From a virus (lineage: Duplodnaviria > Heunggongvirae > Uroviricota > Caudoviricetes), in the IMG/VR virus record IMGVR_UViG_2529293138_000012, positions 1-40,322 of that record: 40,322 bases of DNA; one strand, 5' to 3'. The position numbers are program-made. Numbering within the stretch: the stretch's first letter is position 1; every line of letters starts with the position of its first letter. Below are positions 30,001 through 33,000 of the stretch, piece by piece.

Positions 30001-33000
30001 GACGCGTCAGCGGATGCGCCAATAGTGTTTTTACTCTCTGTAGTATTCTCTGAAGTAATCTCTGTTGTATTCTCTGTAAGATCGAAATTGGTTTTCCCTT
30101 CTCCGCAGCGAGTGGTTTCCCGTGTCCGCGGTGAAGGATTTCCCTCCTCCGCGAAATTGGATTTTACAGTTTCCCGAAAACGGGTTTCCCCATTTCTGGA
30201 AAACTGATTGTTTTCATTGATAATTTCATTAAGGCGCTCACAATCTATACGGTAGAACATTTTGTGCTCAAGACGCTTGTTGGTTTCAACCAAAATGCCT
30301 CTTGACACAAGATGCTTACGCGCTACAGCCTGTTGTTCAAATGTAAGTCCGGTTTCGTGTTGTATCTCTTCACGCGTTTTATGTACGCCTTCCGCTGCAT
30401 GTGCTTTATCCTGCCAGTAAAAAATCTGACCAAAGAAAATAACAGCGTGCGGACTTCCCATGTATTTAACGAGCCCAGGGTAATAAGCAACCGGATGTCC
30501 AAAATCGAGTAGAAGATCAGACGGACGCATAGCCACCTCCCAGGCGTTTAAACATTTTTCCGGACTGAAACGCCACCAGCGGATAACTCAGGGTATGAGT
30601 ACGTCCCTGAACCTGGCAGACAACCTTCTGGCTTTCTGTATTGACCAGGCAAACCCGCAGAACGTGGCCGTTGCTGGTGGTGAACCACTGCCCCACACGG
30701 GGGCAACGGTTGTATCGGTGATACAGGGAATTAACGATGCGGCGAATCATGGGCGCACCTCCCATTGATTACGGCGGAAAGCAGTGTGATTCAGACTGGT
30801 TTCAGCCTCATGGAATGCTTCAATGCAGCTCTCGTAGTACCGCATTGTGCGCAGACTTAACCCAAGCTGAAGCATCATCAGCCCATCAAGGGTGATGTAA
30901 TAACCACGCAGGGAATCGCCATACACGTGGTAAGTACCCGGAATGAAATTACGGGAGAAGAATTCACGTGAGCAGTTTAGATACTCGATTTTGTCGACGA
31001 TGTTCTGGTGCATGCGCTTAAAGTGGCAGGCAACATGCAGGGAGAAAATAACGGCCTTGCCGTTGACGGTCTCAATTTTGAGGAATGGGTGAGTAGTGGT
31101 GGTAGTCATGGTGACAGCCCCTTGTGTGTGTGCTTTACAGCTACCACCCACGGATGCGAAACCATGATTGGTGGCAGCCCAGACAGGATTCGCATTACCG
31201 GACACACAAGGGAAAACCGGCGCTTCCGAAGAAGCTCCCATCTGAGCCGCCATTGAATAGACGTGCGCAGACAAAAAAACACGCTTACGGCGTGTCAGCC
31301 CTGTGTGATGTTTCGGGATGCGAAGCCCGGTTGCTGGATTTACAGCAACGCGGGAAATATAACCCGGAACACCAGCACAGCGCAATAGTTTGAGATATTC
31401 GAAAAGAGATGTAGTAACAACCTTACCGTTGACGGTCTCAATTTTGAGGAATGGGTGAGTAGTGGTGGTAGTCATGGTGACAGCCCCGGTAGTCTGTTTT
31501 TTAGAAAACTCACCACCAAGGCTTTCCACGACCTTATAGGTGGTGAGACGTACAGGGGTGGAAATACCGGAGACTACCGAACCCGGCCCGACCGAAGTCG
31601 GCCCTGTACGCCCCACCATAATTTGGGCGTAGCAATGCTCATGACAAAAAAAAACCGCATGAGCGCGGTTATGCTCAGTAATCAATTTCGGGTTTCCACG
31701 CCCGGCACCCGCTTTATAAGGTGCAGGGACAGTGTAACGTCCAGAAATTGAGGAATCAATGTTTTGATAAAATTCAGCGATTAGAGGCTTCTTTTCTCCC
31801 CATATTAACTTTGAACAAAAGCTCCATGCGATGAGTCCAGATACCCCGTTCTTTGAGTTGTGCTCTGGCTTCTTCGCGCTCAGATACGGAAGTTCTGACA
31901 ATACGATTTCCAGCCAGATTGCGGCGATATTCTCCAAACGCGACTGACTGAAGGTATGCAACGGAGCTTTTGTACTGATAGATGGCTCTTCGAAGGCTGT
32001 TTTTATATTCCTTAGGTATATGTCCGAGATCGGCAAAAAGCTCATGAACGATATCGTGAACAAGCGGAACAACTTTGTATGGAATAACAAAGAAGCTTTC
32101 TGGATAGCGTTCAGCCAATACTTTAATGATTTCTTTATTTGCAAGATGCCTTGCTTTTCTTCCCATATACCATTCTCCATTACTCCAGATATCAGAATGA
32201 TATATCCAGATTTTTTAAGCAGTTCAAGCTTATGCAGGTGCTTCACACTCAACAAAATCACGACGAAACAACCACAACGGGCTGAAACATTCGTGCGGAT
32301 AGCCGTCACGCAGGTAAATGACTCGCTGCGTTTCAGACTCCCAGCGTATAACGTGGACACGACGCCCCCTTCCGTCACAGAACCAGCGATTGAGTACTTG
32401 CATTTGGATTTCATTCCACACCTACCCCTTCACGCTGATTCCAGTCATGAACAGCACGTTCTTTCGAATCAGGAATCTGGTTTGCGTTACAGCAAGTACA
32501 TGCGATGTAATAACCATCATCGCCATCCAGAAAATATTTCACCTCAATGAGTTGTACTTCCGGATTTCCGCAGAACGGGCAAGGTTTCAGATCGACATCA
32601 CCAGTTACACATGTCTTGGTTTGCATCATTTGTTCTCCTGTAAAAGATTCGCGAGCTCAGTGTTATGGGTAAACAGCCCATCCCATGTTTTCTTCATCGG
32701 TAGTTCGCCGTTCAGATAATGGCGATATAACCAGGCGGCACCTTTTTTCTTCAGGAGTGGTTTGAAAATCTCGCGCATTTCCCCGTTTTCCTGCTCAACC
32801 TGCCCAGAACGCTCAGTCAGGTATTGGTCACGTGCATACGCTTTTACACGCCAGCGCGGATACATAGCCTCAGGCCGGTCGTCATACAGCCAGTTACGCT
32901 CTTCAAGGAACGCATTAATCTGACGAGTGTTTACACCGTTGAGTTGTTTGCAGAACTGCACAGGAGTGATGCCATCGGCGAGATAGCTTTCGAGTTTGCT

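Follow-up and report, generated by a model that had tools for sequence, protein, structure and literature searches.

A ProQ/FinO-domain protein encoded directly upstream of tandem IsrK/C4 RNA modules in a lambdoid prophage, and its possible role as their chaperone

The IMG/VR record IMGVR_UViG_2529293138_000012 (Caudoviricetes), analysed over its positions 1 to 40,322 and referred to here as the window (40,322 nucleotides, nt), is a lambdoid prophage whose early-right operon contains a gene for a small ProQ/FinO-domain protein, followed on the same strand by two modules encoding the RNAs IsrK and C4. Bacterial small RNA (sRNA) chaperones fall into three main classes, one of them the FinO-domain proteins, whose best-understood members, FinO, FopA and RocC, each have one cognate antisense RNA. 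The (-) strand carries, in order, a cro-like gene, an ORF6N/ANT anti-repressor gene, lar, a DUF4222 gene, the FinO-domain gene, the IsrK/C4 modules, a Rha-family gene and the replication genes, and a cI-like repressor gene of the S24 peptidase type lies divergently on the (+) strand. Given this lambdoid gene order and the divergent repressor, the early-right location assigned in the initial annotation, made from the sequence alone, is a fair one. A GGAG Shine-Dalgarno sequence is found approximately 9 nt 5' of the ATG of the FinO-domain gene. The 63-nt gap upstream of the gene contains only a weak promoter-like match, read from the sequence (TTGAAC, 17 nt, TATATC), and expression from the early-right promoter after induction is therefore taken as the default assumption.

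The 130-amino acid (aa) product, termed here the window protein, had been proposed to be a ProQ/FinO-domain protein resembling the N-terminal domain of Escherichia coli ProQ, with the match to the family profile named beforehand as the decisive test. The Pfam ProQ/FinO profile (PF04352) aligns with residues 10-107 over profile positions 4-99 of 109, at a score (51.3 bits, E 1.3e-13) that clears the gathering cut-off of 27 bits with a margin, and is the sole Pfam match of the protein; PHROGs assigns it only to a family of unknown function. Among the sequences in the PDB, phmmer ranks E. coli ProQ first, through its N-terminal FinO domain (5nb9, E 1.3e-5), as the initial annotation would have it, with Legionella Lpp1663 and RocC next. 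In the alignment with 5nb9, K54, R58, Y70, R80 and R100 of ProQ correspond to K55, R59, Y71, R81 and R101 of the window protein. The FinO domain spans approximately residues 10-107, and a subfamily-specific C-terminal helix (residues 112-128) follows a nearly invariant Trp110. The AlphaFold2 model, derived from an alignment of 18 sequences (mean pLDDT 92.2, pTM 0.84), presents the helical core and beta-hairpin expected of the FinO-domain fold, and its Foldseek matches in the PDB at E<=0.005 are exclusively FinO-domain structures, namely RocC (7rgt/7rgu, the best match, with E ~6e-6 and a target-normalised TM of 0.70-0.80), Lpp1663 (6s10), FinO (1dvo) and NMB1681 (3mw6), with the first match outside the family already at E 1.5. 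By profile, fold and key residues, the window protein is a genuine minimal member of the FinO-domain family. Compared with four close relatives (96-98% nucleotide identity), its gene shows a ratio of non-synonymous to synonymous change (pN/pS) of 0.07-0.17, three comparisons giving 11-12 synonymous versus 3-4 non-synonymous differences and the fourth 5 versus 3, and is therefore considered a functional coding gene.

Orthology with the characterised members of the family is not indicated by the sequence comparisons. The NCBIfam ProQ equivalog (NF003434) scores 41.8 bits against a cut-off of 127, over its first 105 profile positions only, the FinO profile (NF010317) scores 16.2 bits against a cut-off of 136, and no match to the window protein occurs among 72,556 plasmid records (tblastn, E<=1e-3). 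Judged by these scores, the protein is orthologous to none of ProQ, FinO and FopA and belongs to a separate subfamily with little beyond the FinO domain. The PGAP label on the E. coli copies is already 'ProQ/FINO family protein'.

Beyond the stop codon, the initial annotation had placed an intrinsic terminator at about 100 bp, followed by nested inverted repeats with no clear gene (31490-31650), and had guessed at an associated small RNA. The terminator is located approximately 104 nt past the stop (stem 31670-31653 and T run) and the inverted repeats are present, as is the associated RNA; the RNAs themselves had gone unrecognised, the terminator being the 3' end of an IsrK RNA and the supposedly gene-free repeats a C4 antisense RNA gene. 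Both IsrK and C4 are found twice above their Rfam gathering scores (50 bits for RF01394 and 45 bits for RF01695, respectively), each time on the (-) strand (Table 1), and the second, diverged pair (module B) lies just beyond the stretch described in the initial annotation. The first base of IsrK(A), position 31724, is 49 nt from the FinO-domain stop codon and 7 nt past the -10 element of a putative sigma-70 promoter. This promoter was read directly from the sequence, is unlisted in the consensus scan (8 of 12 matches, threshold 9), and agrees in position with PisrK of Gifsy-1 (PMC4825925).

Each C4 RNA is complementary to sites both upstream and downstream of itself. C4(A) folds with the architecture of the C4 family (RNAfold, -47.3 kcal/mol), and its b' sequence UUUCCAC is complementary to GUGGAAA at two places, the hairpin-2 loop of IsrK(A) and the downstream leader, while the a1 sequence of IsrK(A), GAUUACUGA, was paired by hand to UCGGUAGUC of C4 over 9 bp, two of them G-U. 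The a2 sequence of leader A, AGACUACCGGG, pairs with the C4(A) loop UUCGGUAGUCU and extends into the GGGG Shine-Dalgarno sequence that serves the ATG at 31475. C4(B) differs in its a' and b' sequences and is complementary to the module B targets only, suggesting that the two modules are orthogonal, and a2 of leader B (ACACACAAGGGG) overlaps the Shine-Dalgarno sequence of the Rha open reading frame (ORF). All pairings other than the manual one come from a search for maximal complementary stretches; whole-RNA RNAduplex, which ignores intramolecular structure, was uninformative. The logic of the P1/P7 immI locus is likewise one of C4 pairing with upstream sites and with sites at the ribosome-binding site, and the locus downstream of the FinO-domain gene is, from its RNA content and complementarities, an intact switch of the P1 immI/Gifsy-1 isrK type, present twice. 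No convincing C4 target site was found at the ribosome-binding site or within the coding sequence (CDS) of the FinO-domain gene, which therefore appears not to be regulated by C4. Weak Rfam matches to mir-1261 and ssnA were dismissed as noise.

Table 1. Positions of the FinO-domain gene, the RNA elements and the surrounding features in the window
Feature	Position	Strand	Details
FinO-domain protein CDS	31774..32166	(-)	130 aa, 130 codons, ATG start; ORF listing
Putative sigma-70 promoter of IsrK(A)	31731..31759	(-)	-35 TTGATT 31754-31759; 17-nt spacer; -10 TACACT 31731-31736
IsrK-type sRNA, module A	31648..31724	(-)	RF01394, 62.9 bits; two 5' hairpins, linker, intrinsic terminator
IsrK(A) terminator	stem 31653-31670; U tail 31646-31652	(-)	terminator scan
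IsrK(A) C4 target copy b1	31693-31699	(-)	GUGGAAA, in hairpin-2 loop
IsrK(A) C4 target copy a1	31676-31684	(-)	GAUUACUGA, in linker
C4 antisense RNA, module A	31536..31623	(-)	RF01695, 81.9 bits
C4(A) a'	31571-31581	(-)	UUCGGUAGUCU, in loop of second inner hairpin
C4(A) b'	31558-31564	(-)	UUUCCAC, in 3' junction
Leader A	31473..31529	(-)	b2 GUGGAAA 31523-31529; a2 AGACUACCGGG 31485-31495; ATG 31473-31475
IsrK-type sRNA, module B	31274..31349	(-)	RF01394, 63.3 bits; terminator 31278-31296
c4-a1b1 element, module B	31310..31362	(-)	RF03163, 47.0 bits
IsrK(B) C4 target b1	31318-31324	(-)	UUCGCAU
IsrK(B) C4 target a1	31299-31307	(-)	CACACAGGG, in linker
C4 antisense RNA, module B	31167..31257	(-)	RF01695, 74.2 bits; b' AUGCGAA; a' UCCCUUGUGUGU
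Leader B	31107..31160	(-)	b2 UUCGCAU 31154-31160; a2 ACACACAAGGGG 31118-31129; ATG 31107-31109
Rha-family regulator (output gene)	30747..31109	(-)	anti-repressor type, 120 aa; PF09669, 30.8 bits vs 29.9
89-nt repeat	31049-31137 and 31415-31503		89% identical; holds the start of the Rha-type ORF
DUF4222	32230-32421	(-)	
Lar (restriction alleviation)	32411-32629	(-)	
Anti-repressor	32626-33498	(-)	ORF6N and ANT/KilAC domains; upstream of the FinO-domain gene in the same early operon
Mechanical ORF, 555 aa	30747..32414	(-)	stop-free through the DUF4222 3' end, the FinO-domain CDS (+1 frame), both RNA modules and the Rha ORF
Phage_ASH match (PF10554)	31122-31277	(-)	

Word-indexed protein searches returned almost no relatives of the window protein, and its subfamily was exposed only when 1.84 billion cluster representatives were searched exhaustively with HMMER. 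This yielded 55 proteins at E<=1e-3, approximately 20 of them 113-134 aa in length, the representatives being drawn from a library clustered at 50% identity. In this minimal subfamily Y71 is invariant, R101 and W110 are nearly so, and the position of R81 is occupied by K or R in many, not all, members. A C-terminal 'RGxW(T/S)' motif and the helix are common to the subfamily, and ProQ lacks the motif.

Genomic context could be recovered for twelve lineages, each of which was scanned with Rfam. Among the nine with at least 200 nt of sequence downstream, eight carry an IsrK-like terminated leader and/or a C4-class RNA directly after the FinO-domain gene on the same strand, and in seven of these eight the C4-class RNA scores above its gathering threshold. 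The window and its counterpart P0001 (97% identity, lambdoid) have IsrK and C4 after the gene, as does a P2-like element (P0002, 51%, int-C-Cox), in which IsrK starts 47 nt past the stop and C4 is followed by a P4 epsilon-like 'Derepression' gene. Further modules are found beside defence genes (P0005, 37-40%; AAA_15 and GmrSD), with C4 and an IsrK-like RNA of 41 bits, below gathering, before the contig ends; beside KilA-N (P0011, 35-37%), with c4-a1b1 (44.2 bits) and IsrK-like (46.8 bits) matches slightly below gathering and, by eye, an apparent 5' half of C4 after the IsrK-like RNA at the contig end; and in P0008 (29-35%), with C4 and then a Bro-N gene. In a second P2-like element (P0010, 33-34%, Ogr) the FinO-domain gene is followed by an opposite-strand gene and then by a promoter, a terminator, C4 and a small ORF. 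Two lineages carry a terminator and the RNA sRNA-Xcc1 (RF02221) in the slot of C4, followed by a Bro-N gene (P0009, 35-38%) or AntA (P0012, 27-32%). The contig of P0007 (37-40%) ends 70 nt past the gene and holds a weak IsrK-like double hairpin there (E 0.51), and that of P0004 (38%) is uninformative, with 97 nt downstream only. The remaining lineage, P0003 (46-47%; L014, 909-1295), has isochorismatase-like and SecDF-like neighbours and no module within 339 nt.

The RNAs start approximately 45-165 nt past the FinO-domain stop (547 nt in the P0010 loci), and where the sequence continues past the RNA module, an anti-repressor-type gene is usually next. All other neighbours of the gene differ between lineages, and no further C4-class match was found in the scanned flanks apart from module B of the window and the second module of L004-L006. 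If a module were placed at random on either strand within approximately 6 kb around each gene, it would by rough estimate fall within 600 nt downstream on the same strand in about 5% of cases per lineage, and eight lineages in a row are therefore very unlikely to have arisen by chance. By analogy with other FinO-domain proteins, the position of the gene upstream of IsrK/C4 in most relatives suggests that it encodes the switch's own RNA chaperone.

The related loci also provide a clue to the ligand. Wherever the sequence is readable, the FinO-domain stop codon and the C4-class RNA are separated by an intrinsic terminator. The a and b sequences differ in each of six related loci, yet match the upstream and downstream sites of their own locus. 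In L022 and L024 (3001-4100), which belong to one P2-like prophage lineage, the FinO-domain protein (P0010) is identical and the IsrK-like terminator hairpin (GUCGCUUAAGCGGC and U run) is shared, and the C4 specificity sequences are exchanged (UUUCGAC / CUCUGAGUA versus UUUCCUAG / CUCGUAGGG). The target sites have changed along with C4 a' and b', and the pair represents a natural specificity swap. The same protein and terminator in combination with different a and b sequences is consistent with a protein that recognises the structure of the terminator and not the specificity sequences, so that the protein, if it acts on the module, would recognise a constant structural feature. Terminator hairpins with 3' tails are the characteristic ligands of FinO-domain proteins (PMC9977716), and Salmonella ProQ, a FinO-domain protein of the host, has been reported to be associated with IsrK (PMC5391140). 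This preference and this report make IsrK the most likely ligand of the window protein by analogy, with C4, which combines a long hairpin with a short 3' tail, as a second candidate. The natural variants, in which one protein accompanies different C4 specificities, support the idea of a partnership.

The role considered probable, with moderate confidence and on the basis of synteny and analogy, is that of a dedicated but dispensable chaperone of the adjoining IsrK/C4 switch. In a switch of this type, C4 pairs through a' and b' with sites overlapping the ribosome-binding site of an anti-repressor-type gene, here of the Rha family, and the IsrK-type leader RNA carries decoy copies of the C4 target sites and ends in the intrinsic terminator. 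The protein would bind the IsrK terminator hairpin and U tail, a structure that, for transcripts coming in from upstream, is also the 3' terminus of the FinO-domain mRNA; the closing stem of C4, which is long, and its 3' tail are possible further targets. By stabilising the RNA and speeding loop-loop pairing among IsrK, C4 and the leader, it may tune the timing of anti-repressor synthesis. The net effect could take either sign, with C4 repression being aided, as with FinO and FinP, or with the IsrK decoy titrating C4 and so causing de-repression.

Several observations weigh against this assignment. The basic residues R32 and K35 of ProQ are both replaced by Val in the window protein. The IsrK/C4 module clearly works without the window protein: sequence resembling module A is present at 3881 places in 2379 of 5426 complete E. 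coli genomes, whereas the FinO-domain gene occurs in 14 of the 5426, DUF4222 directly abuts the module in many prophages, and neither P1 nor Gifsy-1 has, to our knowledge, been described as requiring it. The module being common and the gene rare, the protein is therefore viewed as a rare accessory of the switch and not as a core part. The survey covers about a dozen loci, many of them on short contigs; an opposite-strand gene separates the FinO-domain gene from the module in the P0010 loci; and P0003 in L014 is the sole exception to the linkage, with no C4 or IsrK in the 339 nt downstream and neighbours that do not look phage-derived. This last copy, on a 1.6-kb contig, has an isochorismatase-like gene on one side and, on the other, an opposite-strand gene with weak similarity to SecDF, and may be chromosomal or decayed.

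In the phage and plasmid records searched, no isolated element has a detectable homologue. The window protein is found in only three near-identical loci in IMG/VR, no IMG/VR relatives of P0002, P0003, P0005, P0008 or P0010 and no relatives in the GTDB species-representative genomes were found, and tblastn searches with the window protein, P0008 and P0009 gave no match among 50,697 GenBank phage records. The rare and patchy occurrence of the gene, in 14 of 5426 E. coli genomes, would suit a generalist accessory protein that binds RNAs of the host or of other phages, or competes with host ProQ or Hfq, with its place beside the module marking no more than a common recombination or insertion junction. 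In E. coli the gene is indeed an insertion between DUF4222 and isrK, which elsewhere are contiguous in many prophages, and chromosomal ProQ proteins are global binders (PMC9977716). A shared hot spot does not, however, explain the recurrence of the adjacency across unrelated backbones (lambdoid, P2-like with Cox or Ogr, and beside KilA-N or defence genes), or its retention at 27-51% protein identity while the other neighbours change, and a generalist role is thus considered unlikely.

Action at the IsrK terminator itself rather than on RNA pairing, either by protecting the 3' end of the protein's own mRNA (autoregulation) or by altering read-through and so setting the level of the C4 and anti-repressor transcript, is judged distinctly improbable. 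Transcripts entering from upstream end at or pass this terminator, such that the FinO-domain mRNA carries IsrK as its 3' untranslated region, and terminator read-through is the key step in Gifsy-1 (PMC4825925). The constant position of the terminator between the gene and the C4-class RNA is equally in keeping with such an action. The ligand would, however, be the same as that of a pairing chaperone, with only the downstream consequence differing, and we know of no FinO-domain protein that controls termination. That the ORF is a decaying remnant whose FinO similarity has no present function is very improbable: rarity speaks for it, as does the omission of the gene from some PGAP annotations, which give a long overlapping 'Rha family' CDS instead, but the gene has an intact reading frame in all copies, its pN/pS is low, the key RNA-binding residues and, across the subfamily, the C-terminal motif are conserved, and the exact protein occurs in 55 blocks of a public assembly collection.

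As a dedicated chaperone, the window protein would resemble several known FinO-domain systems. FinO, with FinP and traJ in F-like plasmids, is likewise a mobile-element protein whose gene adjoins a structured antisense RNA system, cis-encoded and gating a master regulator; the expected ligand is a 3'-tailed terminator hairpin, and pairing begins at hairpin loops. Unlike FinO, the window protein is encoded on a phage, lacks the long N-terminal helix and has a short C-terminal helix with a conserved Trp, and the locus has three RNA parts (decoy leader, antisense RNA and mRNA leader) instead of one sense/antisense pair. FopA of pCol1B9, which acts with Inc RNA and repZ, is also small, belongs to a mobile element and has a single dominant ligand, a cis-encoded antisense RNA (PMC7491321), but has a basic N-terminal extension of its own, lies on a separate branch and serves plasmid replication control rather than phage immunity. 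RocC of Legionella pneumophila, the partner of RocR and the best structural match, binds a terminator hairpin (complex 7rgu), but is encoded on the chromosome, extends far beyond the domain at its C terminus and regulates competence mRNAs in trans. The chromosomal ProQ of E. coli and Salmonella provides the best sequence match and, in Salmonella, the reported association with IsrK (PMC5391140), but differs in its linker and Tudor-like C-terminal domain, which the window protein lacks, and in the basic character of R32 and K35.

On the RNA side, the P1/P7 immI (c4-icd-ant) and Gifsy-1 isrK-orf45(STnc1160)-anrP loci share with the window the succession of promoter, a1/b1 leader, C4, a2/b2 at the ribosome-binding site and anti-repressor-type gene (PMC4825925). 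They differ from it in that the window switch lies in a lambdoid early-right operon, is built of tandem modules of different specificity and has a short Rha-family output. In Gifsy-1, the short IsrK, acting in trans on the read-through transcript, turns on anti-repressor translation and is complementary to the processed STnc1160 RNA; the paper describing isrK makes no mention of ProQ, and we found no FinO-domain gene described as belonging to the Gifsy-1 system (PMC4825925). FinO-like genes on bacteriophages are mentioned in reviews (PMC9977716), the name FopA itself refers to 'plasmid/phage' (PMC7491321), and a 2026 survey lists, without comment, a satellite with 'BRO, Icd, ProQ' (PMC13612085). 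The literature search found no work tying a FinO-domain protein to C4/IsrK modules or to anti-repressor control, and no description of an RNA partner or role for any phage-encoded member. Nor do we know of a FinO-domain gene described as part of the P1/P7 system. Protein and RNA components are thus of kinds already known, the RNA genes being curated Rfam families with an experimental literature, and it is the conserved linkage of the FinO-domain gene to IsrK/C4 that appears to be unreported. The locus offers the protein a candidate partner in a well-studied RNA switch governing anti-repressor synthesis and hence prophage induction, and makes the choice of RNA by a FinO domain directly testable in a compact system.

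A broader proposal is advanced only tentatively. The FinO-domain proteins of ~125-131 aa with an 'RGxW' helix might constitute the protein part of an unrecognised three-part phage immunity device, comprising a specificity-blind chaperone, an IsrK-like terminated decoy and a reprogrammable antisense RNA of the C4 or sRNA-Xcc1 class, and occurring in lambdoid, P2-like and other temperate elements and satellites with genes of 32% to 60% G+C. The chaperone would load on the decoy terminator and thereby decide whether C4 is titrated and the anti-repressor fires. If true, this would be the fourth dedicated partnership of a FinO-domain protein with an antisense RNA, and the first in a virus.

sRNA-Xcc1 is known as an integron-associated sRNA of Xanthomonas. 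At L013 (1452-1536) and L021 (1057-1138) it occupies the C4 slot between the FinO-domain gene with its terminated leader and the AntA or Bro-N gene, and complementarity is found at two sites upstream and again, with one matching site or more, at the ribosome-binding site. From its position and complementarities it looks like a C4-class immunity RNA, and it is suggested that this RNA, like the 'Ash' protein family, be re-read as part of a C4-type switch.

The remaining observations concern the arrangement of the modules and the reading frames that run across them. The prophage has two anti-repressor-type genes, the ORF6N/ANT gene being unrelated to Rha, and C4 locks precede only one of them. 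The modules are joined by the 89-nt repeat, and the tandem arrangement therefore looks like a product of recombination; two E. coli relatives (L001 and L002) and three IMG/VR contigs have the FinO-domain gene with module A only. The stop codon of the Rha ORF overlaps the next start codon (ATGA). The ORF of leader A comprises approximately the first 18 codons of the Rha-type ORF and then runs on across module B, without a change of frame, to join the Rha ORF; from the ATG at 31475, gene callers report a 242-aa 'Ash+Rha' fusion. The 555-aa frame extending over the FinO-domain CDS was considered as a real overlapping gene and rejected in favour of chance, which is probably its origin: 6.5% of synonymous-codon shuffles of the CDS were stop-free in this frame, and most homologues carry stops in the +1 frame. 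In 11 of the 14 carrier E. coli genomes, the FinO-domain gene has no CDS of its own in the PGAP annotation, which covers it with a 'Rha family' or 'ash family' CDS alone. Translated C4/IsrK RNA genes underlie the Phage_ASH match in the window and the PGAP 'ash family protein' CDSs of L001 (6248-6916) and L002 (4248-4916). What is annotated as the 'Ash' protein family may thus be an RNA gene in translation or, as with orf45 of Gifsy-1, a region with two functions.

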